Counted from the stretch's first letter, positions 4,065 through 30,258 are shown. The stretch is DNA of 32,000 nt from Alkalilimnicola ehrlichii MLHE-1 (GCF_000014785.1 NC_008340.1:1740001-1772000), one strand, 5' to 3'. A program made the numbers and translations. The notes: generated from the sequence alone by a model not told the origin.

Positions 4065-4127
4065 ACTGGCCATCAGAACTGACCCACCCTTGGGGTGGCC
4101 ACTGGCCACGAGTAGACCGTACCGTCC

Positions 4128-6426: not shown

Positions 6427-6459
6427 GCACCGACACCTGGGTCAATTCTGTTGGCCACA

Positions 6460-8975: not shown

Positions 8976-9049
8976 TTGCCATCAACAGGTGATTACGAAT
9001 CAGTAGCCTTAGGGATCCAAGTGATTGATCGCAACAGCACTAAATCCAC

Positions 9050-9550: not shown

Positions 9551-9636
9551 GTAGGCGATCCACAAACCCCATCTGTTGCGCCCGGAGCTGATTCGGGAAA
9601 CTGCTCCCATCGAATCCAGATGAGGAGGTCAGTTCC

Positions 9637-9843: not shown

Positions 9844-10196
9844 TCCGGCCCGATACCCAGGTCAATGTCTATCTCTGTCGCGAGCCGGTGGACATGCGCA
9901 AATCCATCGATGGCCTTTCCCTGCTCGTCCAGGAGGCGATGGCGCTCAATCCGTTCGAGCAGGCGGTGTTCGTCTTCTGCAACCGGCAGCGCGACAAGGT
10001 CAAGATCCTCGCCTGGGAGCGCAATGGCTTCGTGCTCTGGTACAAGCGCCTGGAGCAGGAGCGGTTCAAGTGGCCGGATCGGCTGCAGGGCGACACCCTG
10101 ACCCTTTCCGGGCAGGAACTGAACTGGCTGCTGGATGGGTACGATATCGCGTTGATGCGCCCCCATAAAGCGTTGCATTATCAGGCCGTTGGTTGA
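9840..10196 (+). CDS. tnpB: IS66-family TnpB (IS66 Orf2-like)
   Basis: 118 aa: MIRPDTQVNVYLCREPVDMRKSIDGLSLLV ... FVFCNRQRDKVKILAWERNGFVLWYKRLEQERFKWP, the hallmark IS66 Orf2 sequence. The annotated ORF 9639.. is an upstream in-frame extension. Confidence 0.9.
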   Translation: MIRPDTQVNVYLCREPVDMRKSIDGLSLLVQEAMALNPFEQAVFVFCNRQRDKVKILAWERNGFVLWYKRLEQERFKWPDRLQGDTLTLSGQELNWLLDGYDIALMRPHKALHYQAVG

Positions 10197-10240
10197 TCTT
10201 TTTGCTTTTGGAGGGGGCCTGATTCTGCTATAATTGGGCC

Positions 10241-11833
10241 ATGAAATCAGCGGCCATTCAACCAGATAGGGATGTCTCCCGCCTACAGCGTCAGGTCGCT
10301 GAGCTGGAGAAAAAGCTCGCCGAAAAGGACGCCCTGTTGGCCACCAAGGAAGCCCACTGGGCTGCCCGCGAGTGCTCCATGTTCGAGCAGATCCGGCTGC
10401 TGCTCGACAGCCGTTTCGGCCCCTCCACCGAACGCTACCACGTCGATCAGCAGCAACTGCAGTTCGACGAGGCCGAGCAGTATGCCGATGCACCGGTCAC
10501 CGAACCGGAGGCAGAGGCCGCTCAAGCCGGCGAGACGGCCCCGAGCGTGCCGGCCAAGCGCCGGAACCGTGGCGGCCGCGTGCGGCTGCCCGCGGAACTG
10601 CCACGGGTCGAGGTGGTGCACGATATCCCCGAGGCACAGCGCTACTGCCCGCATGGCGGCAGCGAGCTGACCTGTATCGGCGAAGAGGTCACCGAGCAAC
10701 TGGATGTCATCCCCGCCCGGGTGCAGGTCCGCCGCCACATCCGCCGCAAGTACGCCTGCAGATGCTGCGAAGAAGGCGTGCACACCGCAAGCATGCCGCC
10801 GCAACCGCTGCCCTGGAGCATGGCCAGCCCCGGATTGCTGGCCTACATCGCCACCGCCAAGTATGAATACGGGCTGCCGCTCTACCGCCAGGCCAAGGGC
10901 TTCGAGCGCAAGGGCATCCCGCTGCCGCGTAACACCCTGGCGCGCTGGATGGTGGGCATCGGCGAGCTGCTCACCCCGCTGGGGCAGGCCCTGCAGGACC
11001 ATCTACTGGCCCAGCCGCTCATCCACATGGATGAGACCACGGTCCAGGTGAACACCGAGCCGGGGCGAACGGCCTCCAGCACCTCCTACATGTGGGTCCA
11101 GCGCGGTGGCCCGCCCGGTGAGCAGGTGGTGCGCTACGACTACGACACCAGCCGCTCCGGCCGGGTCCCCCGCCGCCTGCTCGGCGACTATGCCGGCGTG
11201 CTGGTCACCGACGGCTACGAGGGCTATGCCCAGGTGGTGCGGGAGAATGGCATCACCCATGCCGGCTGCTGGGCGCATGCCCGGCGGAAGTTTGTCGAGG
11301 CCCAGAAGGTCCAGCCCAAGGGCAAGACCGGCAAGGCCGACTGGGCGCTGAGCCTGATCGGCAAGCTTTACCGCGTCGAGCGCGAAGGCAAAACCCTGGA
11401 CCCGGAGGATCGCCTGGTGCTGCGTCAGCGCCAGAGCCGGCCGCTGATCGACAAACTCCAGCGCTGGCTGGAGAAGTCCATCACCCAGGTGCCGCCGAAG
11501 ACCGCCATCGGCAAGGCCCTACGCTATCTCCAGACCCAGTGGCCCCGGCTGACCCGCTTTCTCGATGATGGGCGAATCCCACTGGATAACAATCCGGCGG
11601 AGAACGCCATCCGACCCTTCGTAGTGGGTCGAAAGAACTGGCTATTCAGTCACACCACCCAGGGCGCGTCGGCCAGCGCGATGATCTATAGCGTGATAGA
11701 GACGGCCAAGGCCAACGGGCTGGAGCCCTACGAGTACCTGGAAGATGTCCTTACCCGCCTGCCGGCTGCGGACACCGACCAGGCGATTCACGCCCTGCTG
11801 CCCTGGAACTGGGGGAAGACCATACAGGCCTGA
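10241..11833 (+). CDS. tnpC: IS66-family transposase TnpC
   Basis: 530 aa. N-terminal leucine zipper, Cys-rich Zn-finger region (CPHGGSELTCIGEE ... YACRCCE), DDE core (HMDETTVQV, VLVTDGYEGY, GCWAHARRKF), and IPLDNNPAENAIRP near the C-terminus. Confidence 0.92.
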   Translation: MKSAAIQPDRDVSRLQRQVAELEKKLAEKDALLATKEAHWAARECSMFEQIRLLLDSRFGPSTERYHVDQQQLQFDEAEQYADAPVTEPEAEAAQAGETAPSVPAKRRNRGGRVRLPAELPRVEVVHDIPEAQRYCPHGGSELTCIGEEVTEQLDVIPARVQVRRHIRRKYACRCCEEGVHTASMPPQPLPWSMASPGLLAYIATAKYEYGLPLYRQAKGFERKGIPLPRNTLARWMVGIGELLTPLGQALQDHLLAQPLIHMDETTVQVNTEPGRTASSTSYMWVQRGGPPGEQVVRYDYDTSRSGRVPRRLLGDYAGVLVTDGYEGYAQVVRENGITHAGCWAHARRKFVEAQKVQPKGKTGKADWALSLIGKLYRVEREGKTLDPEDRLVLRQRQSRPLIDKLQRWLEKSITQVPPKTAIGKALRYLQTQWPRLTRFLDDGRIPLDNNPAENAIRPFVVGRKNWLFSHTTQGASASAMIYSVIETAKANGLEPYEYLEDVLTRLPAADTDQAIHALLPWNWGKTIQA

Positions 11834-11950
11834 GACCGAGCTCGGTAGGTGGGCGGGGTGGACCGCTTACTTCGGGACCTGTCGGAAGAAGCTTCGGGTT
11901 GAGTAGTGTCGGGCCATGTCTCCCTCCCCAGCCGTCCTGCCAGAATCTCC

Positions 11951-11989
11951 TTGGATTATACGGGACGATGCAGTACATTACAGTACATT
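11951..11989 (+). promoter_or_regulatory. putative sigma70 promoter overlapping a tandem operator-like repeat
   Basis: TTGGAT (11951-11956), then N17, then TACATT (11974-11979). Tandem cagtacatt repeats lie at 11971-11979 and 11981-11989 with a 10-bp period. The site is 26 nt upstream of the RHH gene start. Confidence 0.3.
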
Positions 11990-12014
11990 TGCAGCCACCC
12001 TGCGAAGGACCCTG

Positions 12015-12209
12015 ATGGCCACCACTAAGACCGCGACCGTGACCTTCCGCATTGATCCAGCCGTGAAGGAGGGGCTCCGTACCGCTGCCGCCCGGGAGCA
12101 CCGCTCCATTGCCAACATGGTGGAGGTGTTGATCCGGGATTATTGCGGGCGCAACGGCATTGCAATCCCCGAGAACAACGAACGGCCGCATGGAAAAGAC
12201 AACACATGA
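12015..12209 (+). CDS. ribbon-helix-helix (CopG/Arc/MetJ-type) DNA-binding protein
   Basis: 64 aa starting at MATTKTATVTFRIDPAVKEGLRTAAAREHRSIANMVEVLIRDYC. This has the beta-strand, helix, helix pattern typical of RHH proteins. The stop overlaps the SNF2 start (ATGA at 12206-12209). The track ORF 11916.. is an N-terminal extension. Confidence 0.7.
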   Translation: MATTKTATVTFRIDPAVKEGLRTAAAREHRSIANMVEVLIRDYCGRNGIAIPENNERPHGKDNT

Positions 12210-15097
12210 CGATCACGGCCCACCACGCCAAATACTATGCCTATGACCTGACGCGTCAGGCCCCTCCCGGCGCGGCGGACCAGCTCTCCATGTCGCTGTT
12301 CGATGCGTCGGTCGATCTGAACCCCCATCAGATCGAGGCAGCGATGTTCGCCCTGCAGTCCCCGCTCTCCGAGGGAGTCGTGCTTGCGGACGAGGTGGGC
12401 CTGGGCAAGACCATCGAGGCGGGCATCGTGCTGTGCCAGCGGTGGGCGGAGCGCCGCCGGCGCCTGCTGGTGATTTGTCCCGCTGCGATACGCAAGCAGT
12501 GGGCCACCGAGTTGCAGGAGAAATTCAACCTGCCCGCTGTGGTAATGGATTCCCGCGCCTACCGGCAATTCCAGCAACAGGGCCAACCACGGCCATTCGA
12601 GCAGCGGGCCGTGATCCTGGTCTCCTACCACTATGCGGCTCGTATGCAGGACGACCTGCGTATGGTGCGCTGGGAGCTGGTGGTCATTGATGAAGCCCAC
12701 AAGCTGCGCAATGCCTACCGGCCCAGCAACAAAGTGGGCCAAGCCATTCGCTGGGCCACCGAAGGCCGCCGCAAACTGCTTTTGACCGCTACGCCATTGC
12801 AGAACAGCCTGATGGAGCTGTACGGGCTGGCGAGCCTGATCGATGATCACATCTTCGGCGATCCCAACGCCTTCCGTTCCCAGTACGTCAATGCCGGTGG
12901 CGATCTGGCCGGGCTGCGCCAGCGTCTGGCGGGCTTTTGCAAACGCACCTTGCGCCAGGAGGTGCTTGAGTATGTGCGCTACACTGAGCGCCGGGCGCTG
13001 ACCCAACCCTTCCGGCCAACTGATGCCGAGCAGAAACTCTACGACCGCATCTCCGAGTTTCTGCAGCGGGAAAACACCTACGCCATTCCCGACCGTCAGC
13101 GCCACCTGATCGTGCTGATCCTGCGCAAGCTGTTGGCCTCCAGCTCAAACGCGATCGCCGGCACTCTCGAGAGCCTTCGCGACCGGCTGATCGACCTGCG
13201 CGACAGTGAGCAACTGGAGCTGGACTGGAGCAGCCAACTGATCGAAAGCGAGGAAATGGAAACCGAGCTGCTGGACGAGTGGCTGCCGCCGGAGGAGAAC
13301 GGCGAGGCCAATGGTAAGACCGAAGACAATCGTCCGGAACCGAAGAAGCTGCGCGATGAAATCAGCGAGATCGACAGTCTGGCCAAGGCTGCCCGCGCCA
13401 TTGGTGTGGATGCCAAATCCTGCGCACTGCTCACCGCGCTCGATGTCGGTTTCCAGGAGATGGGTCGAATGGGGGCGCGGGAAAAGGCGTTGATCTTCAC
13501 CGAATCCCGCCGAACCCAGGACTATCTGAAAGACTATCTGGAGCAGAACGGTTATGCCGGGGAGGTGCTGCTGTTCAACGGCACCAATGCCGGCCCTGAA
13601 GCCAAGGCCATCTACGAGAACTGGGTCGGCAAAAACCAGGAAAGCGGCCGCGCCACCGGTTCCCGCGCCATCGATGCCCGGCTGGCGCTGGTGGAGCATT
13701 TCCGCGACAACGCCAAAATCATGATTGCCACGGAAGCAGCGGCGGAAGGCGTCAACCTGCAGTTCTGCTCGCTGGTGATCAATTACGACCTGCCCTGGAA
13801 CCCCCAGCGTATCGAACAGCGCATTGGTCGCTGTCACCGTTACGGCCAGCAGCACGATGTGATCGTGGTCAACTTCCTCAACGAGCGCAACGAGGCAGAC
13901 CAGCGCGTGCATGAGTTGTTGACGGAGAAGTTCAGTCTCTTCAACGGTCTGTTTGGTGCATCCGATGAAGTGCTGGGCCAGCTTGAGTCTGGCGTCGATT
14001 TCGAGAAGCGCATCCTCGCCATCTACCAGCAGTGCCGCACCTCGGATGAAATCGAAACCGCCTTTCGCCAGCTCCAAGAAGTACTGGAGGAGCAGATCAA
14101 GAGCCGCATCCAGGAAACCCGCCAGACCCTGCTGGAGCATTTCGACGAAGACGTGCACGCCCGGCTGCGCTTGCGGCTGGAAGACGCCCAGGCCCAGCTC
14201 GACCGCATCGGCCAGCGTTTCTGGCAAGTCACCGGGCACATACTGGATGGCCGCGCACGCTTTGATGATGCCAGGCTGGTCTTCGATCTCCACGAGCCGC
14301 CAAAGGCCGACATCCGGCCTGGCCGCTACCACCTGATCTCCAAGACGCGCAGTGGTGAGCAGGGCGAATCGCCGGACTACGGCTACTACCTGTACCGCCT
14401 CTCCCATCCGCTGGGCGAGCACGTCATCGAATCGGCCAAGCAGCAGCCGACGCCCACAGCGCATCTGCGCTTCAACATCACCGTCCATCCGGGGCGCATT
14501 GCCCTGGTGGAAGCACTCAAGGGTAAGTCCGGTTGGCTGACATTGGCTCGGCTGACCATCGAATCTTTCGAAACCGAGGAATACCTGCTGTTCTCCGGCA
14601 TCGACGACGAAGGCCGCTCGCTGGACAATGAAACCTGCGCCAAGCTGTTTAACGTCGCCGCTGACAATCGTGGCCCGGCGGACTTGCCCGCCGAGGTGGA
14701 GCAGCGCCTTGCCGCTGAGCTTGCCCAACACCAGCGCGCCACTGCGAACCGCTCGCTGGAGGCCAACAACCAGCACTTCAACGCCGCCCGCGAACGCCTG
14801 GAACAATGGGCGGAAGACAAGATGCTGGCCACCGAGAAAACGCTCAAGGACACAAAAGAACAGATCAAGGCCCTGCGCCGTCAGGCCCGACAGGCCGAAA
14901 CCCTGGAAGATCAGCACGACATCCAGGAACGTCTGAAACAACTCGAGCAGCGCCAGCGCAAGCAGCGCCGGGACATCTTCAAGGTGGAAGACGAAATCGA
15001 AGAACAGCGCGACAGCCTCATTGCCGCGCTGGAAAAACGCCTTGCCCGAGACCAGCGTAGTGAGCGCCTGTTTACGCTGCGCTGGTCCGTCGTATGA
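12206..15097 (+). CDS. SNF2-family (SF2) helicase/translocase, 963 aa
   Basis: Helicase motifs: [14 protein letters not shown] (I), [10 protein letters not shown] (II, DEAH), [16 protein letters not shown] (III), [10 protein letters not shown] (IV), [12 protein letters not shown] (V), [18 protein letters not shown] (VI). The roughly 330-aa C-terminal extension ends in a K/R/E-rich coiled coil. Confidence 0.9.
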
Positions 15098-15158
15098 CGG
15101 ACAACAACGGCAACCAGAATCAAGCAATCAACGAAAACACGACAAGGACTATCGCAGC

Positions 15159-18388
<3,230 letters not shown>

Positions 18389-18392
<4 letters not shown>

Positions 18393-21220
18393 GCCAGAAC
18401 CTTACACCCGTGAACAACGAATGGCGTTTTCCCGGTGCCCGCTGGTGGAGCTTCGACTTTCACACGCATACGCCCGCGTCCAGTGACTATGGGAAAGGAC
18501 CAGATCAGGCGGAATTGAGAGAGATAACGCCGGAAGAATGGTTGCTCAAGTTTATGCGGGCAGAGATTGACTGCGTCGCGGTCACTGACCACAACTCAGG
18601 CGATTGGATTGATCGGCTAAAGGCTGCGCTAGACCATCTCCGCGAGCAGCAGCACGCGGATTATCGGCCCCTCTGGCTCTTTCCAGGTGTCGAAATTACA
18701 GCCAATGGAAATATCCATATTCTGGCCATCTTTGATCCAGCCAAGGATGGTGCGGATGTCAGTGCGCTGCTGGGGGCGGTCGGCAATCACGGCAACCGGG
18801 GGGAGAGCAACCGTGCCGTGAACGCTTCCCCAATCGAAGTGATTCAGAGAGTCGTAGAAGCCAGTGCGTTGCCCGTGCTGGCCCACGTAGACGGCCCTTC
18901 CGGCGCCTGGGAGCTAGGCGGCAATACATTAACGCCCTTGCTTGAGTGTGAAGGCCTATTTGCAATGGAGGTGGTTAACCAATGCTCGGAAAAGCCTGCA
19001 CTATACGGTCAGAAGCACCTGCGCTGGGCAGAAGTGCTGGGGTCTGACGCGCATCACCCTTCCGGCCCCGACGGTGCGCGCTATCCGGGTTCGCATTGGA
19101 CCTGGGTAAAAATGGCGCAACCATCGCTGGAAGGCTTGCGCCTTGCCTTGCTTGATGGTGAAGGGTTCTCCATTCGCCGCAGTGATGATCCGGAACCGTT
19201 CGACCCAAACGCGCTGCCTGAGAATTTTATCGAGTCAGTAGAAATTGACGATGCCCGCTATATGGGGCGTGGTCAGCCGGAAACCCTTTCCTTCAGCCCG
19301 TGGTTCAACGCGCTGGTAGGCGGGCGGGGGACAGGAAAATCGACCATCGTGCACGCACTGCGGCTGGTGTTGAGGCGCGAGAATGAGTTGCAAGCCCTGG
19401 AGCAAGGCAGCGAGCCGCGCCGTACTTTCGAAAAATTCAGTCGCGTAGCACGTGGGCGAGACGACGATGGTGCGCTTACGCTGGATACCCATGTGGCACT
19501 GACCTTTATTAGGGACGGCACACGTTATCGCGTGTACTGGCGTCAAGATGGCTCGGGTTCGATCGTCGAAGAACGAAAAGATGGTGAGTGGCGTGAATCG
19601 GATAATCAGGCGGTGATTCCCGAGCGTTTCCCCATCCGGCTGTTCAGCCAGGGCCAGATCGCGGCACTAGCCGGCGGAAGCCATCAGGCGCTGCTCGATT
19701 TGATCGATGAAGCGGCGGGAGTGGATGCCGAACAAACCGCGCTGCGTGAGGCACGGCAGACCTATTTGTCTCTACGCGCCAAAGCGCGTGAACTGGAAGG
19801 CCGGCTTCAAGGGCGTGATGCACTGAAGGTCCGCTTGGAAGACGTGCAGCGGAAATTGAAGAAGTTCGAGGAAGCCCATCACGCCCATGTGCTAAAGGCG
19901 TATCAGCGTCGATCCCGACAGGAACGGGAAGTTAACCGCCAGTTTGAATCGGTTGCTGAAATTGTGGGCCGTGTTCGTGAACTCGCAGAAGAATTGGCGG
20001 CGGAGGATGTCCCGGAGCAACTGTTCGATGAGCAGAACGAACAGGACAAGGAGGCGCTGGCCCTCGTGTCGGGTCTCCATCAGGCGATTGAATCCGCCAC
20101 GAAGGCGTTGAAGGGCACGGCCAATGACTTGGCGGCCACGGTCCGGAAAGAGCGGGAAAAACTCCCGGATACTGACTGGCAGCAGGCAGTGAGCAAGGCG
20201 CGGACCGATTACGAGAAACTTGTCAGGGATCTAAAGGAACAGGGTGTCGCGGATCCTAGCGAGTATGGCCAGTTGGTACAGGAGCGGCAGCGGCTGGAAA
20301 ACCAGTGGAAGGAATTGGAGTCGTTAGCCGCGCAGCGCAGCCGAGTCCTGGATCAGGCCGAAACCCAGCTCGAGTCGGTTGTAGCGGCTCGGCGGGCGCT
20401 CAGCGAGCGGCGGGAAGCCTTTCTTGAGGAGAGTCTGGCCGATAACGAATATGTGCAGATCAACCTGAAGCCTTACGGCCAAGATGTCCGTGCCATGGAA
20501 CGAAGCTTGCGAGAATTGTTGGGCGCGGAAGGCTCAAAATTCGAAGCGGATATACTGATTGAAGAAGATAGCCAGCCTGCCAAGGGGATTGTCGCTGAAC
20601 TGATTAAACAGTTACCTGATGATCTTACTCAGGCAAAAGGGGAACTTGAACGAAGGGTCGGCCAAATCAAACGGCGCCTGAATGAATCCTGCCGGGGCAA
20701 CGGCATTTTCGGTGGTCACTTCAACAACTTCCTTTCCAAGCAGGCGAGTAATCGCCCTGAGTATGTCGATCACATAATGATGTGGTATCCGGACGATGGC
20801 TTGGATGTGAGGTACAGTCAAAAAGGCGATGGGCGGGATTTCAAATCCATTGAACAGGCATCGGCAGGTCAACGCGCGGCTGCGATGCTGGCATTTCTGC
20901 TGGCCTACGGCTCTGAACCGATTGTGCTGGATCAGCCAGAAGATGATCTCGATAATCACCTGATTTACAACCTGGTGGTTCGCCAATTGCGTGAAAACAA
21001 GCGGCGGCGGCAGATTATTTCCGTAACGCATAATCCCAACATTGTGGTCAATGGGGATGCCGAAATGCTCCACGCACTGGATTTTCGCGGCGGCCAGTGT
21101 CGGGTGATCGAAAAAGGCTCGCTACAGGAAGAAGCCATGCGCGATGAGGTTTGCCATGTCATGGAGGGCGGCCGCGATGCATTCGAGCGGCGTTATCGTC
21201 GTTTGGGCAAGGAGGTATAG
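18389..21220 (+). CDS. PHP-domain phosphoesterase fused to an SMC/RecN/OLD-like ABC ATPase with a long coiled-coil insert, 943 aa
   Basis: PHP metal ligands: [27 protein letters not shown]. ATPase motifs: Walker [10 protein letters not shown] (about 19319-19345), signature-like SAGQR, Walker [12 protein letters not shown] (about 20923-20952), H-loop SVTHNPN. About 300 aa of heptad-rich sequence lies between Walker A and the signature. Confidence 0.85.
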
Positions 21221-21223
21221 GGC

Positions 21224-22495
21224 ATGTTTGATACCGCGGCTGCGCTCTTGGAGAAGATACAGCTTGGGGAAGATTCCTTCCTTGAGCTGAAGGAGGTTCG
21301 GATCGCCGGGAAGCGAGTGACCGCACCACATCGCAACTCACTGGTGGACGAATTGGCAGCGTTTGCGAATGCCAAGGGCGGTGTCTGTGTGCTCGGTGTG
21401 GATGATGCAACGCGAGAAATTCTCGGGATTCCGCGAGACAAGCTGGACCTTGTGACTGACTATGTCCGGCAGACCTGCCTGGACTCAGTGACACCACCGT
21501 TGACCCCAGTTATTGAGCGGCTACTTCTGCCTACGACCACCGGTGACGAGGTGGCCGTATTGAAGGTGGAAATCGGTCGCAGCTTGTGGGTGCATCGCAG
21601 CCCCGGCGGCTATATGCATCGGGTGGGTGATGAAAAGCGTGAAATGGCGCCGGACTTCCTCGCCCGACTGTTTCAGCAGCGCAGTCAGGCCCGAATCATT
21701 CGCTTTGACGAGCAGCCAGTGCCGAATGCCACCCTGGATGACTTGAATGAGGCGCTTTGGCAACGATTCGCAACCGCACGTACCCGGGATAACCGCGATG
21801 ACCTGCTGCGAAAGCTCGGCATGGCCCGCATGGATGACGATGTCTTGCGCCCGTCGGTGGCGGGTATCCTTCTGGCTTCCGATGATCCTCGCCATTGGCT
21901 GCCCAATGCGTTTATTCAGGCGGTCGCCTACCGGGGTACTGAAATTCGACCGGTAGGCGACCAAGCGTACCAGCTTGATGCAGCAGATCTCACCGGGCCT
22001 TTGGATCAACAGGTGCTTTCTGCCTGCCATTTTGTCAGCAAAAATATGCGAGTCGCCGCGTCCAAAAGCGTGGGCCGAGAGGATGTTCCTCAGTTTGATA
22101 TGACAGCCGTATTCGAGGCCATCGTCAACGCGGTCGCGCATCGTGACTACGCTATGCAGGACGCCAAGATCCGGTTGCGCGTATTCGCAGACCGCATGGA
22201 ACTGTACTCCCCCGGAGCCATCCCTAACACCATGACGGTGGATAGCCTACCGTACCGCCAGGCTGCACGGAATGAAACGATTACCAGTTTGCTGGCGAAA
22301 TGTCGGGTGCCGGATGAAGGCGGGCTGGGAACAGGCCGATCCACCATGATGGATAAGCGGGGCGAAGGCGTGTCCATCATCCTTCAAAATAGTGAAATGC
22401 TGTCCGGTCGTGTCCCGGAATACAGCCTGGTTGATGATAGTGAGCTCCGCCTGGTGATTTACGCACCAGCGGAAACGGATGGAGGGGAAGACTGA
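21224..22495 (+). CDS. AlbA_2 (Schlafen-like DNA-binding) plus HATPase_c_4-like ATP-binding protein, 423 aa
   Basis: N-terminus [10 protein letters not shown] ... [22 protein letters not shown] is the typical AlbA_2 divergent AAA-like box. C-terminus [34 protein letters not shown] is the GHKL-like box seen in RecG-related putative regulators. RBS aaggagg at 21209-21215, with a 3-nt gap after the upstream stop. Confidence 0.8.
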
Positions 22496-22497
22496 GC

Positions 22498-25400
22498 ATG
22501 CCGCCTCGTAGACGCAACAACCGGCCGCAGGTGCCGTTCGCCTACAAGCTGGTGCTGAACCAGTGGCTGTTCAGCCTGTTTGGGCTGGCGTCCACTGACG
22601 GCTTCTTTACCTGGAACGGAAAGCGCCTGCCGTTACTGGAAGCCTTCAAGCAGAAGTTTCAGTTGAGCGAAGACAGCGCCGGCGGGTTGGACGAGAACAA
22701 CATCCACCGCTTCCACACGGCCCTGACCAACCAGACCGACCCGCTGCCCGAACTGCCGGCCGATCTATTGCTCGAGTATGACCAGAATATCGTCCGTCAT
22801 ACCCAGCGTTTGAACGAGCGCCGGCTGGCGCGCGGCGAAGAGGCTATCGCCTGGAAGTACTTCCAGTACCTGTCGCTGCTGTTCACCGAAATCTATCTGG
22901 ACCGTTATTTCTCCGATGCGGATGCCTTGCTGGCCTCGATCAACGAACAGATTGAGCGCTACAACGCGGACAAGCCGGAACCGGACCAGGTCCCAAATCT
23001 GGATCCGGAAGGCGATGTCACCGGGCAGTTGAACAAGCTGGCCTTCTGGAGCGCCACCGGCTCCGGTAAGACGCTGATCATGCACGCCAATATCCTGCAA
23101 TATCAGCACTACCTGACCAAGCACCGCCGCCGCCGCGAGCTCAACCGGATCATCCTGTTGACGCCCAACGAAGGGTTGAGCCAGCAACACCTGCGAGATT
23201 TCCAGGCTGCCGGGATCGAGGCGGAGTTGTTCGACAAGAACGGTCGCGGGCTGTTCGCCGGGCAGGCTGTCGAGATCATCGACATCAATAAACTGCGCGA
23301 CGAGATGGGCGATAAGACGGTTGCCGTCGATGCCTTCGAGAACAACAACCTCGTGCTGATCGATGAAGGGCATCGGGGTGCCAGTTCCGGTGAGACCGGC
23401 ACCTGGATGCGCTTTCGCAATGCATTGTGCGAGCAGGGTTTTTCCTTCGAATACTCCGCCACTTTCGGCCAGGCGGTAAAGCGCAGCTCCCAACTGGCGG
23501 CCCAGTACGAGCGTTGCGTGCTTTTCGACTATTCCTACAAGTATTTCTATGGCGACGGCTATGGCAAGGACTACCAGATCCTGAACCTGGACCCGCAGAC
23601 CCAGGAAAACACTATGGAGGTTTACCTGGTGGCCTGCTTGCTGTCTTTCTTCCAGCAGCTGCGCTTGTATCGCGAACAGGCTGTGGCTTGCCGGCCGTTC
23701 AATATTGAGAAGCCGTTGTGGATCTTCGTCGGCGGCCGGGTCACCGCGTCTCTTTCGACCAAGGATGCCTCCGACATTGTTGAGATTCTGCGCTTTTTGG
23801 CGCGCTTTCTCGGTGATCGTGCCGGGAGTACGGCGCGCATCCGGCGGGTGCTGGAGGAAGGCTTGATTGCTGCCGATGGGCGCAATCTATTTGCCCGGCG
23901 TTTTGCCTACCTGAACGGATTGGGGCTTTCGGCCGAGCAACTGTTCGAGGAAGTACAGGCCAGCCTCTTCAATGCCGCAGGGGGCGGCGCGCTGCACGTG
24001 GAGAACCTGAAGGGTGTCCCGGGGGAAATCGCTTTGCGCGTTGGCGACAATGAGCCGTTCGGCGTGATCAATGTCGGCAATGACAGCAGACTGTGCTCGC
24101 TCTGTGAGAACGAAGACGGGCTGCTGGTCGGTGATCGGGATTTCAAGGGCTCCCTGTTCCAGTCCATCAATGCTCCCGATTCGTCTGTCAATGTACTGAT
24201 CGGCTCCAAGAAGTTCACCGAAGGCTGGAACAGTTGGCGCGTCAGTACCATGGGGCTGATGAATGTGGGCAGCACGGAGGGTTCGCAGATCATCCAGCTT
24301 TTTGGCCGCGGGGTGCGCCTGAAGGGTTATGACGGCAGCCTGAAGCGCAGTGCCAGGGTGAACCTCCCGGAGGATGTCGCGCGGCCAGGACACCTGCCGA
24401 CACTCGAAACCCTGAATATCTTCGGCATCAAGGCCGACTACATGGCCCAGTTCCGCGAGTTTCTCGAAGAAGAGGGGCTGCCGTCTAACGAGGAGCGTAT
24501 CGAGTTCCTGCTGCCCGTGATTCGCAACCTGGGTCAGAAGCAGCTCAAGACCATTCGCTTGAAGAAGACCATCAACGGGGTAAGTACCCAGTTCGGTGAC
24601 GCCTTCAAAAAGCTCGGGCCAGTGCCGACACTGGCCCGGCCCGATCCCGCGCAGGAGGCGGCCACCCGGTATCTGCAAACCAATCCGGTTGTGCTGAATT
24701 GGTATCCCAAGATCCAGGCGATGCGCTCCAGTGGCGTCGGTGCCGTGGAGGAGGATCGTCAGCCGGATCAGGGTGCCCTGAGCAAGAGACACATCGCCTT
24801 TCTCGACCTGGACGCGCTGTATTTCGAGCTACAACGCTTCAAGGCTGAGCGGGCCTGGCACAACCTGAACCTGCCACGGGATGTGTTGCCCGAACTGCTG
24901 GCCGACCAGAGCTGGTATCGGTTGCTAATCCCGGAGTCCGAGCTGGCCTTCGATTCCTTCGAGAAGATTCACCTGTGGCAGGAACTCGCCGAGGCGCTGC
25001 TCAAGAAGTACTGTGAGCGCTACTACTCGTTCCGCAAAAAGGAATGGGAGCTGCCACACCTGGAGTATCGCTATCTGGATGCCAACGATCCGAACTTTCC
25101 TCAGGTCAATGAGGATTTCCCGGAGGGATACCACCGCATCCTGGTGGAAGAGTCTCAGACCGAGATTGTCGCCAAGCTCAAGGAGCTCAAAGCACAGATT
25201 GATGCGGGCACGCTGAAACCCTGGCAGTTTGGCGGCCTGCAAGCTATTCCATTTGGTCGCCACCTGTACGAGCCACTGTTGCATCTGGCGGGCTCAACCG
25301 TCGAGATCAGTCCCGCACCCCTGAACCAGGGCGAGAGGCGCTTCGTGGAAGACCTGAGGGACTACTGTGACTCGAAACCGGCATTACTGCAGGACAAGGA

Positions 25401-25812
25401 ACTCTATCTGCTACGTAACCTGAGCAAGGGCCGCGGCGTAGGCTTCTTTGAGGCAGGTAACTTCCATCCCGATTTCATCGTTTGGTTGATCGCTGATGGT
25501 CAGGAGTACATCTCGTTCGTCGATCCCAAAGGGATTCGAAACCTCGGTGCCCAGGACCCGAAAATCCAGTTCCACCAGACCATCAAGGAAATCGAAGATC
25601 GGCTTGGCGATTCAACTGTGACGCTGAACAGTTTCGTGATTTCCAATACGCCAGCGCATGAGATGCGATTGCTTTGGGGGGTGGACAAGGCGCAGATGGA
25701 AGCCTGGCATGTTCTTTTCCAGCAGGAGGACAAGGCCAGTTATATCGATTCGCTACTCGCCAAATCACTTGAGCCTGTCAAGTCTCCCGCGAAGGGATCC
25801 GTTTCCAAGTAA
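22498..25812 (+). CDS. SF2 (DEAD/DEAH, type III Res-like) helicase with C-terminal PD-(D/E)xK nuclease motif, 1104 aa
   Basis: Helicase motifs: WSATGSGKT (I, about 23050-23073), LIDEGHRG (II, 23362-23373), YSATF (III), QLFGRGVRL (VI). C-terminal nuclease motif HPDFIVW ... x16 ... FVDPKG (25468-25530). RBS ggagggg at 22481-22487, with a 2-nt gap after the upstream stop. Confidence 0.88.
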
Positions 25813-26093
25813 CGTAAGAACGGCGTACTTATGGGGATCGAGTAGGAGGGGGTGTTACCACCCCCGTCCTCTCACACCACCGGGCATACGGTTCCGTACC
25901 ACGGCGGTTCACGTAAGACGCTTGAGCCCATGGTAGTGGTCCATCAGCGATACCAGTTGAAGCTGATCAAAGTGCTTCTTGGGCAGCGCCTGGTTCAGGT
26001 GCGACGCCCCGGCATTCCACCACGGGCCACGCCCGTTGGTGGCACTGCGCCAGGCCCGCTCCTCGCCCAGTCCCCCGAAGTTCGACACCTCAA
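25813..26093 (-). mobile_element. 3' remnant of a group II intron (maturase C-terminus plus domain V/VI region); ends approximate
   Basis: A minus-strand frame gives ...NGRGPWWNAGASHLNQALPKKHFDQLQLVSLMDHYHGLKRLT*, with the stop at 25909-25911. This resembles the conserved C-terminal tail of bacterial group II intron reverse transcriptase/maturases as I recall them. A 34-nt domain V-like hairpin follows about 35 nt downstream. The 5' part of the intron is absent. Confidence 0.55.
25840..25873 (-). ncRNA. group II intron domain V-like hairpin
   Basis: The minus strand reads GAGAGGACGGGGGUG-GUAA-CACCCCCUCCUACUC. It is exactly 34 nt, has a GNRA tetraloop, a 7-bp upper stem and a GAG/CUC base. 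The lower stem is imperfect. Confidence 0.45.
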
Positions 26094-26284
26094 GCGGGCC
26101 TGTTTACGCCAATTGTACAAGGTCGCCGCGGAAATCCCCTCGGCCTCGGCCACATCAGGGACAGTGCGGTTCATCGGTGGTGCCAGCTTGCGCAGGACAG
26201 CTTCCTTACGCTCCGCGGAGTAGTGCTTCATGGTTGTCACCTGCTGGTTGCATAGAGGCGACAACTACGTTGACCGATAGGGCA
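26094..26284 (-). mobile_element. inverted partial second copy of the IS3-like left end plus orfA 5' part (same family as 9050-9550)
   Basis: High (roughly 95%) nucleotide identity to 9050-9240 by my eye alignment. Encoded MKHYSAERKEAVLRKLAPPMNRTVPDVAEAEGISAATLYNWRKQA differs at 2 residues. Homology stops abruptly at 26094, where intron-derived sequence begins. Confidence 0.7.
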
Positions 26285-26445
26285 CTGCGCTCCCACGCAT
26301 AATGCTCTGTGTGTGAGCATACTAATACTGTACGCTTATAATAAATATTTATTTGAGAGAAAGACGCTGAACACTCACTTCCTCGGTACGCGGCCAGTGA
26401 GAACGCATGACATGAGCCTCATCTTTCCAACTCAACGCTTGAAAT

Positions 26446-26796
26446 CTATCTGAGCATATCCCTCAACCTGCTTCTCCTGCTATCTGATTCATCCAAAACA
26501 TCATCTAAATTATCCTTCAGCACCTCATTTTCTGACTCGAGCTCTTTATTTTTTCGGATTAGATTGTCCTGTATTGAAATGAGACTTTTAATGACCTGCT
26601 CCGGATCATCAAAGTCGATTTCTTCTGGTCGGACATCCCCACCGGAGAGCCCCGCTCTCTCTGCTTGGGAGAGCGCACGCTCCACTTCTGACTTAACTGC
26701 CCGGTCAAGCACGTACCGAGCGGCATCCTCACTGCTACAGGCTACAACGGCGACTGCAACAACAACACCCAGGATCACAGAATTAATCTTAGCCAT
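26446..26796 (-). CDS. small lipoprotein with acidic coiled-coil C-terminal part, 116 aa
   Basis: Signal peptide plus lipobox (ILGVVVAVAVVAC|SS), followed by heptad-like NLIRKNKELESENEVLKDNLDDVL. RBS aaggaa. The start overlaps the upstream gene's stop by 8 nt. Low-GC coding sequence. Confidence 0.65.
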   Translation of the reverse strand: MAKINSVILGVVVAVAVVACSSEDAARYVLDRAVKSEVERALSQAERAGLSGGDVRPEEIDFDDPEQVIKSLISIQDNLIRKNKELESENEVLKDNLDDVLDESDSRRSRLRDMLR

Positions 26797-27874
26797 TACT
26801 TTCCTTCCGGGATTCCGGACCCCCCTTTAGCCAGGCAATTGATCGCTTCGCGAAATTCTCTGCGATATGACGCCTCGGCACGAGACAAAACAACCTATGG
26901 AAAACAGGAAAAACTCGATCCACCATCCCACGCTGTAGCAACACCATGGCAATGGAAAGTGGCATCATCTTCAGAAGGTTAAACAAAAAAACAAGCGCGT
27001 AAAACGCATAAAACCCGTCTAGCCGATCCTCGTCAGAAAAACCCCATATGTCAAGAAACTCATTCGCCGATGCGAGCTTGAACGCATCAAGAATAAGGTA
27101 CATATTTATTAGCGGCCGGGATATTTCATTACCCCCCAAACTCGGCACCTGATTATTTTCTGCATACTCAATGAAGTCAATCTGCCCGAGATCTGAATTG
27201 TAATCGTAGCCTACATTAGAAACAAAAAAAGAATGAAGGTCTTTCGCACTCAGCACACCCGCAAGAACGACATTAATAACAACGATGGCCAGGATTAACC
27301 CCAAAACATTTCGACCAGCATCACCTCCTGCGCCCGCGCTTTCAGAACCGTCTCTTCCAGCCTTAATATCTCCATCTTTATTTTCTATAGGACTGCAACT
27401 TTTTGGAGAACCCTCATTCTCACCAGAAGCACTTGCTGCATCCTTCGAAATATTTCTATCTTGAATACCTTTGACTGCAGCGCTCCCCAAGAAATAAGAG
27501 ACAAAGAAAGCACATATCAAAAGCAGAAAGAAGACAGGAACCACACCATGACTTATAACCGCTCCTTTCGCAACCAGAGAAAAGATAATGGACAATATAA
27601 AGGCAAAAGCCGCAGACCCTAATAGCTGCCAGGCGGACCCACTTTTCTCAAAGAACGCACGAAGCACGGAACCTTTCTCAAAGAATACTTTTACGGAGTT
27701 TCGCAGCACCATCTGAACATCATAGGCAGCACCCCATAAAACCAAAAAAACCACACCAAAAAGCAAAGAAAAACCAAGATCAGTTCTTCCAAATAGAAAA
27801 ACCAAACCGAAAAAAGGGATCATTGACACCAAGACTAAACACCACCTTTTGGAACGACCCATTACTCCCCCCAC
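26789..27874 (-). CDS. polytopic inner-membrane protein of unknown function, 361 aa
   Basis: At least 5-6 hydrophobic segments, including WCLVLVSMIPFFGLVFLF, LLFGVVFLVLWGAAY, LLGSAAFAFILSIIFSLV, VVPVFFLLLICAFFVSYFLG, VLGLILAIVVINVVLAGVL, FYAFYALVFLFNLL. It also has a central G/S/D/E-rich loop. The GTG at 27874 or the ATG at 27862 are possible starts. About 40-48% GC. Confidence 0.65.
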   Translation of the reverse strand: MGGVMGRSKRWCLVLVSMIPFFGLVFLFGRTDLGFSLLFGVVFLVLWGAAYDVQMVLRNSVKVFFEKGSVLRAFFEKSGSAWQLLGSAAFAFILSIIFSLVAKGAVISHGVVPVFFLLLICAFFVSYFLGSAAVKGIQDRNISKDAASASGENEGSPKSCSPIENKDGDIKAGRDGSESAGAGGDAGRNVLGLILAIVVINVVLAGVLSAKDLHSFFVSNVGYDYNSDLGQIDFIEYAENNQVPSLGGNEISRPLINMYLILDAFKLASANEFLDIWGFSDEDRLDGFYAFYALVFLFNLLKMMPLSIAMVLLQRGMVDRVFPVFHRLFCLVPRRHIAENFAKRSIAWLKGGPESRKESNG

Positions 27875-27892: not shown

Positions 27893-29086
27893 TTATTGCC
27901 ATAGCGACAAGGGTTGTCCAGTTGTAACAACCGCTCCATAGCGGCATTTTATGGTGATCGTATCACGCCATATGACCCATACAACATCGAGAGCCTCCAC
28001 CTCGTGGCGGCCAGGTAGCTGACCGAACCCATCCGTGAAATACACCAGCACCCTCGGCGGATCCGACTTCAAGGCCTCGAACACCGGCCTGAAGTCCGTC
28101 CCCCCACCCCCCTTCAGAATCATCTCAGGCCTCAGATCCGCAGCAGTCACGTACTCATCGCTCTGGATATCGGCATCCGCTTGGATCAACCGAATCCGCG
28201 TATCCGGCCACTGACCCGCAATGCCCCGCAACTCTGCCAGGAACGCGGGCAGGTAGTCCTGCGTGCTGCCGCTGGTGTCGATGGCCACCGCCAGGTCCAC
28301 CCGCTCCCGCGCCGGCCCGGGCAGGTAAAGCTCACGACTGAGGTACCTGCGGTTCGGTGTGGTCCATTGACGCCTGCCCGGGTCCAGGCGGGGAACAAGG
28401 TAGCGTCTCAGGACAGTCTGCCAGGGCACTTGCGGACGGGTCAGGCTGCGCACCAGGCTGCCCATGACGCCGGGCAGACGCCCGATGCCCCGACCACCGT
28501 GGCCCCGGGCCTGCACTTGCTGCCAGGCCCCCACCACCCGTTGCTGCCAACCTTTCCAGATACGCTCGTCGGGTCGCGGGCAGAGGTCGGGATCGCTACG
28601 GCCAAGGGACGGGGCGCGCCAGGTGTGCCTGTCCCGGAATCGGCCCCGGCCCTCATCCGTCAGGTCCTCCGGCAGAACCTCGTAGATGGACTCTGCGCTC
28701 CATCCGCGCCAGTGCCGTCTGTACAGCGCGCCTTTGGGCACGGTCATGCCGGTCTCCGCGAGCAGGCCATTCACCTCGTAGTCCACCGCGTGATTCCACC
28801 GGACCGTGTCCCGACCCTGGCGGCGCAGGTGATGCAGGGCCGCGCAGTGCCATACCTCGTGCGCCAGCACGAAGAGCCGGTCCTCGTCGCTGAGCCGGCA
28901 GAGAAAGTTCGCATTGCCGAAAACCGTGCGGCCATCGGTGGCAGCGGTGGGCAGGGCCCCGTCCACCACCGGTTGCAGTTCCAGTTGCATGGCCAGCATG
29001 CCGATGAACGGCTGCTCGAAGACCAGCCGCGCCCGGTCGTTCTCCCACAGCGCGAGCGCCTTTTCCTTGACCTCGGCCCGCTTCAT
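27893..29086 (-). CDS. VWA-domain protein with N-terminal HExxH metallopeptidase-like domain (DUF2201-type), 397 aa
   Basis: The Met at 29086 (MKRAEVKEK) overlaps the MoxR stop (ATGA). HExxH motif AHEVWHCAALHH (HEVWH at 28847-28861). MIDAS residues AIDTSGST, GGGTDF, YFTDG. The 746-aa track ORF is an artefactual upstream extension. Confidence 0.85.
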   Translation of the reverse strand: MKRAEVKEKALALWENDRARLVFEQPFIGMLAMQLELQPVVDGALPTAATDGRTVFGNANFLCRLSDEDRLFVLAHEVWHCAALHHLRRQGRDTVRWNHAVDYEVNGLLAETGMTVPKGALYRRHWRGWSAESIYEVLPEDLTDEGRGRFRDRHTWRAPSLGRSDPDLCPRPDERIWKGWQQRVVGAWQQVQARGHGGRGIGRLPGVMGSLVRSLTRPQVPWQTVLRRYLVPRLDPGRRQWTTPNRRYLSRELYLPGPARERVDLAVAIDTSGSTQDYLPAFLAELRGIAGQWPDTRIRLIQADADIQSDEYVTAADLRPEMILKGGGGTDFRPVFEALKSDPPRVLVYFTDGFGQLPGRHEVEALDVVWVIWRDTITIKCRYGAVVTTGQPLSLWQ

Positions 29087-30258
29087 GCCGACACGCCGTC
29101 CCAGCGCTGCGCGAAGGCCTGGCCGTGCCGCTCGCTCCATGCGTTGAAGGCCGGGTGCATCAGCAGTCGCTCGGAGCGGCGCTCGGTTTCTGCCTCGTCC
29201 GGCGCGTTCAGTGCATCCACCAGGGCCAGGGTGGCAAAGTCCGACGGCAGTGCCAGGGTGAGCCGGAAGAAGCCTTCCACGAGTGCATCCGAGCCCCCTT
29301 GCGGCCCCTGCCAGAGGTAGTAAACCGCTGCGGCACACAGGGCATAGCGGTGGTCGGCCCGCTCGGGGATAGTGATTTCCGCCTCTCCGCGCAGCATCGC
29401 CGGGACGTCGGGCAGAGTACGGTGCCAGGCACGAAAGGCCATCAGCTCCACTCCGGCACCGGGGCCGACCAGGCCCTGGACCAGCAGGCTCACGTCCTCC
29501 TGCGGCAGCCCGGTCCGCTCCGCCCGGTGCAACGTGTCGCTGACCCGCTCCCAGGTCCGTGGCGAGGGCCAGCCCCGCTCCAGGTTGCCGTCCATGGAGA
29601 AAAAGGCGTGGGGCTGGAAGCGCAGGAAGCCGATCACGTCCGGGTGGATGCCTCGGCTCCGGGCCCAGGGCAGCCAGGATTCCAGGTCCGGGGTGATCTC
29701 CAGGTGACAGAGCCGGTTGGCCAGCGCGCTGGAGAACGTGGTGGCCACGGCCCGGTCCTCGCTGCGATTGCCGGCCGCGCAGACCATCCATCCGGGGGGC
29801 AGTTCGTAGAGACTGCCGAGACGACGGTCGAGGATGATCTCGTAGACAGCGACCTGCAGGCTGCGATCCGCGGCGGTGAGTTCGTCGAACAGGATGATGC
29901 CGCGGCTGTCCCGGTCCCGTGGCCAGTCGGAGGAGAGCAGCCAGTCCACGGCTTCGTCCTTCGGCACGGGCAGACCACGGATATCCACCGGATCGCGCTG
30001 GGCGAGACGGATGTCGATGAAGTCGATCCCCTCCTCTTCGCACAGCTCGCGGATCACGGTGCTCTTGCCCACGCCGGGCGGCCCCCAGAGCATCATCGGC
30101 GGCACGGCGTGCGGGGCCTCGGGATGGTCCCACAGGGCGTGCAACTGATGACGCAGCAGACGACGGACGCGCGCCACGTCCGTGCCGGGTGTGGATGGGA
30201 CATCCGGGGCGAGATCGGGCATGTCGGTTCTGGACCGGGATCGGACGGGACGGTTCAT
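29083..30258 (-). CDS. MoxR-like AAA+ ATPase (AAA_5-type), 391 aa
   Basis: Walker A LWGPPGVGKST, Walker B GIILFDELTAADRS, sensor-1-like VCAAGNRSEDRA. It is paired with a downstream VWA gene, as in MoxR-VWA modules. The start overlaps the upstream gene's stop (ATGA at 30255-30258). Confidence 0.88.
   Translation of the reverse strand: MNRPVRSRSRTDMPDLAPDVPSTPGTDVARVRRLLRHQLHALWDHPEAPHAVPPMMLWGPPGVGKSTVIRELCEEEGIDFIDIRLAQRDPVDIRGLPVPKDEAVDWLLSSDWPRDRDSRGIILFDELTAADRSLQVAVYEIILDRRLGSLYELPPGWMVCAAGNRSEDRAVATTFSSALANRLCHLEITPDLESWLPWARSRGIHPDVIGFLRFQPHAFFSMDGNLERGWPSPRTWERVSDTLHRAERTGLPQEDVSLLVQGLVGPGAGVELMAFRAWHRTLPDVPAMLRGEAEITIPERADHRYALCAAAVYYLWQGPQGGSDALVEGFFRLTLALPSDFATLALVDALNAPDEAETERRSERLLMHPAFNAWSERHGQAFAQRWDGVSA

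Follow-up and report, generated by a model that had tools for sequence, protein, structure and literature searches.

The 32,000 nucleotide (nt) window analysed here, from the genome sequence of Alkalilimnicola ehrlichii MLHE-1 (GCF_000014785.1, NC_008340.1:1740001-1772000), contains a five-gene operon in which a gene of the TrlF/Ppl family lies between a DNA methyltransferase gene and a restriction-type helicase gene. All positions are counted from the first nucleotide of the window. The trlF-like gene is on the plus strand at 18389 to 21220 and encodes a 943 amino acid (aa) protein in which a PHP nuclease/phosphoesterase domain is fused to an SMC-like ABC NTPase. It is followed by a trlG-like gene (21224 to 22495, plus strand) for a 423 aa protein that combines a Schlafen/AlbA_2 domain with a GHKL-type HATPase_c_4 domain, a combination referred to as a 'Schlatpase'. 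These two genes, with the mechanisms proposed for them below, probably make up a self-contained defence cassette, nested between the methyltransferase and Res genes of an SNF2-Mod-Res operon and co-transcribed with it. That the first gene belongs to TrlF/Ppl and that the two form a cassette is very likely.

The ATG of trlF at 18389 overlaps the TGA stop codon of the methyltransferase gene (18390 to 18392), as described in an initial annotation of this stretch, forming an ATGA at 18389 to 18392, and a GAGGAGG sequence is present 7 nt upstream of the ATG. The 943 aa product is also called in public annotations on three contigs that encode an identical protein. On the same three contigs the neighbours match too, being an SNF2 protein of 963 aa, a methyltransferase of 1077 aa, the 423 aa protein, and a Res-like protein of 1104 aa.

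The PHP domain covers residues ~18 to 265 (18440 to 19183, plus strand). Its nine metal ligands are H25 and H27 (in HTHTP), D33, H68 (of the D67/H68 pair in DHNS), E102, H110, H166 (in AHVD), and D220 and H222 (in DAHH). The nucleotide-binding motifs of the ABC head, all on the plus strand, begin with a Walker A at residues 311 to 319 (GGRGTGKST; 19319 to 19345) and a Q-loop at Q421. The signature QASAGQR (823 to 829, with SAGQR at 825 to 829) and the Walker B and D-loop (845 to 855, including 848-DQPEDDLD-855) are at 20855 to 20953, and the H-loop THNPN (880 to 884) is at 21026 to 21040. In an alignment of 14 sequences with 57 to 88% identity, the PHP and ABC motif positions are invariant or nearly so. 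The 80 related loci used for the neighbourhood comparisons below were fished out with two TrlF motifs, one of them DQPEDDLD, which biases any Walker B count made on them. The residues were therefore recounted on an unbiased set, in which the annotated E. coli Ppl was added to 126 full-length representatives taken from a HMMER search of the whole library, and the PHP and ABC motif positions were again invariant. The full set of PHP His/Asp ligands and the split-head motifs (Walker A, SAGQR, DQPEDDLD, and THN) noted in the initial annotation are thus real features of the family. As read from the sequences, the PHP metal site and nucleotide-binding motifs of TrlF and the catalytic sites of TrlG are intact.

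Directly after the Walker B Asp848 there is a glutamine, Gln849, in the sequence D-Q-P-E (residues 848 to 851; 20930 to 20941). D848, Q849, P850, and E851 are invariant in all 128 sequences, including the experimentally studied E. coli Ppl. In HMMER alignments the LDQ of TrlF is placed against the LDE of SMC heads, with Gln at the position of the catalytic Glu. Engineered Glu to Gln changes in SMC and ABC proteins trap the ATP-bound, engaged state. This family-wide glutamine, a natural 'EQ' state, suggests nucleotide sensing over fast hydrolysis. Glu851, two residues on and comparable to the DEPE motif of OLD/GajA-type ATPases, could still support slow hydrolysis.

An AlphaFold2 model of TrlF has a mean pLDDT of 74, with the PHP core and the coiled coil mostly at 80 to 95. 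The order in the model is a beta/alpha PHP domain (~18 to 265), the N-terminal ABC half-head, two long helices (432 to 535 and 551 to 682), ~115 aa of unassigned alpha/beta structure, and the C-terminal half-head. The helices form an antiparallel coiled-coil insert (19682 to 20434, plus strand) that joins the halves of the head between the Walker A and the signature and Walker B, as in SMC, Rad50, and RecN. The apex (536 to 550) is a short acidic loop that has no Cys and no CxxC, and it has neither the hinge nor the zinc hook of that group, just as the catalytic Glu of that group is replaced by Gln849. Phe546 at the apex is kept in 96 of the 128 sequences. Hidden Markov model (HMM) matches of SMC and Rad50 over the coiled-coil region are weak and sub-threshold.

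Foldseek comparison of the model with the PDB found the heads and coiled coils of MukB, JetC, Smc, Rad50, RecN, and LmuB (E = 3e-8 to 1e-4). PHP matches were to 3o0f, RNase AM (7ug9/9etk), and 2yb1, with E = 5e-6 to 2e-4 and target TM scores of 0.47 to 0.60. A sequence search of the PDB with TrlF returned SMC heads only and no solved Ppl or TrlF structure. In the Pfam scan, no PHP family came out at E < 0.01; the PHP assignment is based on the ligand pattern, the NCBIfam matches to CehA/McbA (8e-9) and RNase RNM, and the fold search. Of the checks proposed in the initial annotation, structure prediction gave a monomer model that matches both the PHP and the SMC/Rad50/RecN folds, and the HMM search for PHP succeeded with the NCBIfam models and failed with Pfam. 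The spacer of about 300 aa of heptad-rich sequence described there has the right layout and the wrong length, since the coiled coil is ~250 aa and is followed by the ~115 aa alpha/beta region. The architecture of TrlF as a PHP domain plus an SMC-like ABC ATPase is confirmed.

TrlF from the window matches the NCBIfam model TrlF_fam_ATP (NF045780) with 623.4 bits (cutoff 350; E = 1.1e-186) over profile positions 2 to 944 of 944, a match far beyond chance. Its score against the Ppl_antiphage equivalog (NF042955) is 570.1 bits, under the cutoff of 1000, and against the PADLOC Ppl model it is 472 bits. E. coli Ppl aligns to it over 98% of the length, with ~30% identity by tblastn and 31% in a global alignment, and all of the PHP and ABC motifs, DQPE included, are identical between the two. 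TrlF is named after the Temperature Restriction Locus (TRL; trlR-trlF-trlG) of Photorhabdus laumondii (PMC7554251). The window shares with this founding locus the complete PHP ligand set at the N-terminus of TrlF and the adjacent downstream trlG. It differs in having no small upstream trlR and no stand-alone three-gene operon; the gene upstream encodes the 1077 aa methyltransferase and there is no small open reading frame (ORF) between. With Ppl it shares the catalytic architecture, and it departs from a single-gene stand-alone system in having a TrlG partner and in being part of a five-gene operon.

The family is large. A word-indexed search gave more than 3800 matches, an exhaustive search gave 1133 clusters at 50% identity (E <= 1e-30), and 1165 plasmid records have a TrlF match, which in 420 of them covers 80% or more of the protein. 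The phage collection is nearly without relatives (7 of 50,697 records, all distant). Judged by its sequence, the window TrlF is a member of a large and already named family and presents no new protein architecture. The view that PHP is a rare effector finds no support here, in a family of 1133 clusters that has both NCBIfam and PADLOC models.

As an anti-phage protein encoded by a single gene, E. coli Ppl has been validated (Millman et al. 2022). An earlier preprint still treated it as uncharacterised. According to the passages on Ppl in a 2026 review (PMC12904381), it is a PHP 3'-5' exonuclease of single-stranded DNA, is inhibited by nucleoside triphosphates (NTPs) bound at its PHP and NTPase domains, and is activated by 3'-OH ends generated by phage homing endonucleases. 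The suggestion in the initial annotation that TrlF is a second nuclease effector alongside the restriction enzyme is in keeping with these reports as far as a nuclease-type effector is concerned; as a partner of the restriction system it is not borne out.

The trlG-like gene starts 3 nt past the trlF stop codon, and an AAGGAGG Shine-Dalgarno sequence is present within the 3' end of trlF. Pfam identifies SLFN_AlbA_2 (6e-16) and HATPase_c_4 (2e-17) in the 423 aa protein, and because of these two domains it was assigned as TrlG. Residues E16, E21, K23, and D61 in the Schlafen (SLFN) part and E298, N302, and H306 in the GHKL N-box are conserved, the E-E-D residues and the N-box at 95% or more. The spacing of E16, E21, and D61 presumably corresponds to the E-E-D catalytic triad of SLFN13. 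TrlG also matches the PADLOC SLFN-pAgo model, at profile positions 169 to 436. In SLFN-pAgo, the SLFN and GHKL supradomain is a tRNA nuclease, the active form of which is assembled by ATP binding (10.64898/2026.05.29.728809).

The neighbourhood of trlF was compared across the 80 loci, which are on one-genome-per-species contigs from more than 15 phyla, including Pseudomonadota, Bacteroidota, Acidobacteriota, Actinomycetota, Chloroflexota, Verrucomicrobiota, Planctomycetota, Spirochaetota, Chlorobiota, and others. In 61 of them, the gene immediately downstream, in the same orientation, encodes a TrlG homologue (44 to 92% identity). The identity matrices of TrlF and TrlG are correlated (Mantel r = 0.83, n = 54), with none of 999 permutations giving a value as high. 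TrlG is better conserved than TrlF, with a mean identity of 54% against 41%. All-against-all clustering of 1115 neighbouring ORFs revealed no family besides TrlG that is conserved with TrlF. It is therefore TrlG, and not the methyltransferase, that is the conserved and co-evolving partner of TrlF. About 19 of the 80 TrlF homologues have no TrlG, and these are scattered in the clustering of TrlF by similarity, as would fit a TrlG that was lost sporadically. One such stand-alone form is E. coli Ppl; the annotated ppl on pCARB35_02 has no same-strand partner.

Cases without TrlG raise the alternative that TrlF defends alone, like single-gene Ppl, and that TrlG is only a DNA-binding regulator, of COG2865 type, of the cassette or of the host operon. 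Source annotations of TrlG relatives include 'predicted HTH transcriptional regulator' and 'putative DNA binding domain-containing protein', and no trlF mutants were recovered in Photorhabdus (PMC7554251). However, the Schlafen E-E-D and GHKL N-box residues would be needless in a pure regulator, and TrlG is more conserved than TrlF. In Photorhabdus, trlG point and nonsense mutations relieve the growth arrest seen at 36 degrees C (PMC7554251), and such relief of toxicity through loss of function fits an effector. A purely regulatory TrlG is accordingly unlikely.

The remaining three large genes of the operon are those of the host system. The first encodes a DrmD-like SNF2 helicase of 963 aa (12206 to 15097, plus strand; Pfam SNF2-rel_dom and Helicase_C), with 703 bits to NCBIfam DISARM_DrmD_b (cutoff 950) and 691 bits to PADLOC DrmD. 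It is followed by a type III-like N6/N4 DNA methyltransferase of 1077 aa (15159 to 18392, plus strand; Pfam N6_N4_Mtase, 3e-22; PADLOC MTase_III PDLC03646, 683 bits). After the cassette there is a type III Res-like helicase of 1104 aa (22498 to 25812, plus strand; Pfam ResIII; PADLOC REase_III PDLC03654, 747 bits), in the translation of which a C-terminal PD-(D/E)xK motif, HPDF...VDPKG, can be read. Mod and Res with such a C-terminal motif are as in type III restriction-modification (RM), and the extra SNF2 gene makes this an atypical triad. DISARM, which has a core of the DrmA helicase and DrmB (DUF1998) together with DrmC, DrmD or DrmE and DrmM, was considered as the host system and rejected: DrmA, DrmB, and DrmC are absent and only the SNF2 protein is DrmD-like. 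No DrmA, DrmB, or DrmC model was the best match of any of the five operon proteins, the sole DrmA match being weak, secondary, and to the SNF2 protein.

The genes of the operon are tightly packed. trlG and the Res gene are 2 nt apart, with a GGAGG Shine-Dalgarno within the 3' end of trlG, and elsewhere too internal Shine-Dalgarno sequences accompany the tight junctions, each within the preceding gene. Upstream, a 64 aa ORF (12015 to 12209, plus strand; beginning MATTKTATVTFRIDPAVKEGLRTAAAREHRSIANMVEVLIRDYC) has a stop codon that overlaps the SNF2 start, and it is called on an identical contig. By its sequence pattern it is possibly a ribbon-helix-helix regulator of the operon; it has no HMM match. 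Within 11700 to 26500, promoter and terminator consensus sequences are matched no more often than they are after shuffling of the sequence. The overlaps, the internal Shine-Dalgarno sites, and the lack of any excess of promoter or terminator signals argue for a single operon. Translational coupling of trlF to the methyltransferase gene is plausible from the overlapping codons. Such tight coupling is a trait of this compact operon as a whole and is no specific sign of a complex between the methyltransferase and TrlF.

Close relatives, in which TrlF is 88% identical, keep the exact five-gene operon and have a divergent BrxR/WYL regulator upstream. In a comparison with the relative at locus L081, the methyltransferase (6798 to 10004 in L081) is the most diverged of the five, with 74% identity against 88 to 95% for the other four genes, which fits a swapped or fast-evolving target-recognition region. 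The host system also exists without the cassette. A homologue of Res (~39% identity) recurs on plasmids of Klebsiella, E. coli, and relatives. On a Klebsiella IncF plasmid the core is a helix-turn-helix (HTH) gene followed by SNF2, methyltransferase, and Res genes, with no cassette; its SNF2 protein is 52% and its methyltransferase ~36% identical to those of the window, and the methyltransferase stop codon coincides with the Res start. The 64 aa ORF of the window has no similarity to this HTH gene. Among plasmids, the host system has its closest homologue at positions 1 to 15270 of the Hymenobacter swuensis pHsw1 contig (Res 51%, methyltransferase 51%, SNF2 58%). Here genes for a 1210 aa AAA ATPase and a 433 aa hypothetical protein are inserted between the SNF2 and methyltransferase genes, so both junctions of the SNF2-methyltransferase-Res triad accept cargo.

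The cassette, for its part, is mobile, and it occurs both on its own and nested within several methylation-based systems that are unrelated to each other. As annotated with PADLOC, it is between PglX and PglZ-BrxL in type 1 BREX (BrxC...PglX / TrlF TrlG / PglZ BrxL; five loci), after PglXI in type 3 BREX (BrxC PglXI / TrlF TrlG; three loci), and between HmaB and HmaC in Hma (HmaA (HEC-08) HmaB / TrlF TrlG / HmaC; four loci). Three more loci resemble type I RM, as judged from how large the genes are and from upstream genes that match Methylase_S, HSDR_N, and N6_Mtase, rather than from a gene-by-gene scan. Stand-alone cassettes are present on a Burkholderia thailandensis plasmid (a small ORF, TrlF, and an 'ATP-binding protein') and on a Yersinia ruckeri plasmid; synteny with TRL has been cited for the Y. 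ruckeri plasmid pYR3 (PMC7554251). TrlF-TrlG therefore has the hallmarks of an embedded system, being nested in the same orientation within multi-gene systems and occurring elsewhere without the host. Two loci have two TrlF copies close together, one of them a tandem of two TrlF-TrlG pairs beside BREX genes. In a metagenome-assembled genome of the Legionellales (4775 to 12048 of its contig), a TrlF-like gene directly precedes those for SbcD and SbcC, and its stop codon overlaps the start of the SbcD gene.

A same-strand gene is present within 200 nt upstream of TrlF in 42 loci, and in ~14 to 17 of these it encodes a DNA methyltransferase or specificity subunit, often with overlapping codons. 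The methyltransferases are from unrelated families (PglX, PglXI, HmaB, Mod, and HsdM/S). Other upstream genes are ResIII/HsdR, restriction endonucleases, or BrxL. In ~30 of 72 informative loci there is no same-strand upstream gene within that distance. Another TrlF locus directly after a methyltransferase gene is on E. coli pVNCEc57. A methyltransferase of the window type is near TrlF in just one of the 80 loci, where it is distant, and the same is true for SNF2; a Res of the window type is essentially absent from these neighbourhoods. This locus, in Polaromonas sp. OV174 (8346 to 15549 of its contig), is an independent operon of SNF2, an additional gene, N6_N4 methyltransferase, a TrlF-like gene, and ResIII, in which a 36% identical TrlF is nested without TrlG and has codon overlaps on both sides.

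The initial annotation had taken the coupling of trlF to the methyltransferase gene as a sign of a physical complex, in which TrlF would be an integral subunit of SNF2-Mod-Res, made 1:1 with the methyltransferase and bound to it as a DNA-clamping second nuclease. The ATGA overlap with its Shine-Dalgarno sequence, the five-gene operon kept in close relatives, the independent Polaromonas operon, and the frequency of methyltransferase or specificity genes upstream all suit such a subunit. Yet the upstream methyltransferases are unrelated to each other, many loci have no close same-strand upstream gene, stand-alone cassettes occur, and in the Klebsiella core the methyltransferase is coupled straight to Res. 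The methyltransferase is not a conserved neighbour, the partner with which TrlF co-evolves is the downstream TrlG, which had not been linked to it, and tight coupling is general in this operon. An integral subunit is for these reasons an improbable identity for TrlF.

It is also very improbable that TrlF is a housekeeping DNA repair enzyme, an analogue of SbcCD/Mre11-Rad50 with PHP in place of the Mre11 nuclease. Its architecture does mimic Rad50 plus a nuclease, and in the Legionellales locus TrlF is next to SbcD-SbcC. Against this, the distribution is patchy and horizontally mobile, on plasmids and on islands flanked by insertion sequence (IS) elements and an integrase, the gene is nested in defence operons, the zinc hook is missing, and Gln replaces the catalytic Glu.

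For the nested defence cassette, a two-step mechanism can be proposed by analogy, in which TrlF is sensor and DNase and TrlG is the growth-arresting effector. This proposal is tentative, with a little less than an even chance of being correct. By comparison with Ppl, TrlF would dimerise through its ABC heads, its coiled coil, or both, and bind free DNA 3' ends, which its PHP site would degrade in the 3'-5' direction. Nucleotide binding to the head with Gln in place of Glu would serve as a sensor or gate and not as a motor, and the activity of TrlF would be unleashed once NTP pools are depleted and DNA ends produced in the course of phage infection. TrlG, by analogy with SLFN-GHKL modules and with the Photorhabdus genetics, would be a Schlafen RNase that forms oligomers under the control of ATP and probably has tRNA as its substrate. 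It may execute growth arrest, triggered by TrlF or acting together with it. The assignment of these two roles is suggested by the Photorhabdus trlG genetics and the SLFN-pAgo module. Through embedding in the host operon, the cassette would be regulated together with the restriction-like system and back it up as a second layer.

Several points weigh against this picture. At ~31% identity, the window TrlF is a rather distant homologue of the tested Ppl, which works alone without TrlG. The fold of TrlG is based on HMM matches and motifs, and its AlphaFold2 model, from a 16-sequence alignment, has a pLDDT of 47.6. HTH regulator is a frequent annotation for proteins of the COG2865 type such as TrlG, which could be a regulator and not an effector. 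No trlF mutations were among the Photorhabdus mutants (PMC7554251), which leaves a functional dependence between TrlF and TrlG putative. A purely autonomous cassette also does not account for the recurrent site directly 3' of methyltransferase genes. This site, after a methyltransferase or specificity gene, is used in at least five unrelated systems (BREX1, BREX3, Hma, type III-like, and apparently type I RM), and it may be just a permissive junction or may reflect function. If it reflects function, the pair might be an undescribed two-component module, with a Ppl-like nuclease that senses DNA ends and nucleotides and a Schlafen tRNase-type effector, that is functionally tied to methyltransferase-based systems. 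The cassette could then be a back-up that fires on inhibition of the host system, or it could act on DNA ends that the host system creates. This stronger version of the proposal is rather doubtful.

The only genetics on a TrlF-TrlG locus concern a temperature-induced, TrlG-dependent growth arrest (PMC7554251). It is possible on these grounds to see the pair as a toxin-like module for stress or temperature growth arrest, as in Photorhabdus TRL, for which the defence location is incidental. But the context is strongly and time and again one of defence (BREX, Hma, RM, plasmids, and islands), the anti-phage function of the homologue Ppl has been validated, and the Photorhabdus-type pair is distant (against Y. 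ruckeri, 23 to 40% local identity for TrlF and 30% for TrlG). Arrest at high temperature is plausible as an autoimmune side effect of an abortive-infection module. A growth-arrest module that has no part in defence is quite unlikely.

In the regions flanking the operon, at 2457 to 4086 and 6438 to 8067 there are two 1630 nt IS3-family copies, 100% identical and inverted, flanking an IS21 element at 4128 to 6426 (istA 4128 to 5699, istB 5686 to 6426). This arrangement is like a composite transposon, or else reflects a double insertion of very recent date. A tyrosine integrase gene (8061 to 8975) and a complete IS66 set (9070 to 9591, 9639 to 10196, and 10241 to 11833) are directly upstream of the defence operon, where loci L081 and L083 carry the divergent BrxR/WYL regulator. 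No BrxR remnant was found upstream of the operon in the window, and an antisense 146 aa ORF at 11751 to 12191, considered as such a remnant, is unrelated. Directly after the operon, 25852 to 27874 is of low GC content (44 to 52%, against 58 to 70% around it) and may be further island cargo; its ORFs at 25852 to 26223 (plus strand), 26446 to 26796 (minus strand), and 26789 to 27874 (minus strand) have no Pfam, NCBIfam, or PADLOC match. At 27893 to 31952 on the minus strand there is a gene for a 746 aa DUF2201_N/DUF2201 protein (VWA-like metallopeptidase) and then a 565 aa ORF within 30255 to 31952, which matched no family and gave nothing in the PADLOC and NCBIfam scans. These genes, in the high-GC flank, are probably host chromosome.

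For annotation, 18389 to 21220 should be taken as the gene of a defence nuclease of the TrlF/Ppl family that has TrlG as its partner, and not as a restriction-enzyme subunit, and the five-gene operon as two systems, one nested in the other. In itself this is an ordinary, illustrative member of a known family in a known type of arrangement, that of embedded defence. What may be under-appreciated is the Schlafen-GHKL partner that most Ppl-like genes have in this sample and the tendency of the cassette to be right after methyltransferase genes. In current defence catalogues Ppl is listed as a single-gene system, and no paper linking Ppl with Schlafen was found in the literature searched. If the sensor and effector roles are correct, a nuclease that senses DNA ends and nucleotide pools would be linked to a Schlafen RNase, which would be relevant to eukaryotic Schlafen biology. 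The temperature restriction of Photorhabdus would then be explained as autoimmunity of a defence module.

Among the closest known systems is E. coli Ppl, with the same PHP domain, ABC head, and coiled coil, the same nine ligands, and the same Walker A, Q-loop, signature, DQPE, and H-loop. They differ in that identity is ~31% and the score is below the equivalog cutoff, and that Ppl stands alone where the window TrlF is paired and nested in an operon. Photorhabdus TRL (Hapeshi et al. 2020, PMC7554251) has the same pair in the same order, with the stop and start codons close or overlapping. There the pair is between polA and dsbA, whereas in the window it is in a larger operon and without the small trlR; the Y. 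ruckeri/Photorhabdus-type TrlG is 30% identical, and the phenotype of TRL is temperature-dependent growth arrest and not phage defence.

In Rad50/SbcC, RecN, MukB, JetC of Wadjet, and LmuB of Lamassu, the top structural matches, an antiparallel coiled coil divides the ABC head as it does in TrlF. In contrast to these, TrlF has its nuclease fused in cis, and this is PHP and not Mre11/SbcD, TOPRIM, or Cap4. Its coiled coil is short (~100 to 130 residues per arm), without zinc hook or hinge, and it has Gln for the catalytic Glu. RNase AM (YciV/TrpH), the PHP exonucleases of PolX and Pol III alpha, and Cv1693 have in common with it the TIM-like PHP fold and the trinuclear His/Asp/Glu site pattern. 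These enzymes are stand-alone or fused to polymerases, and none is joined to an SMC-like ATPase.

As for the arrangement, PrrC in EcoprrI, BrxU in BREX, and HEC-01 to HEC-09 in Hma, the last as given in the main text of the preprint of Payne et al. (2024), are similarly nested in the same orientation within a methylation-based system. In a term search of that main text, Ppl came up only in lists of ABC-ATPase systems, and no mention of the TrlF-TrlG cassette as an embedded system was seen. TrlF-TrlG is also based on an ABC ATPase, and an Hma operon among the loci examined here carries both HEC-08 and TrlFG. The host in the window differs in being an SNF2-Mod-Res triad and not Hma, BREX, or type I RM. 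Finally, the Schlatpase of SLFN-pAgo (AlbA_2 with GHKL, PF13749; Kuzmenko et al. 2026, preprint) matches TrlG in both of its Pfam domains, and the E-E-D and the N-box are kept in TrlG. TrlG stands alone at ~420 aa and has no Argonaute core, and TrlF would be its presumed sensor partner.

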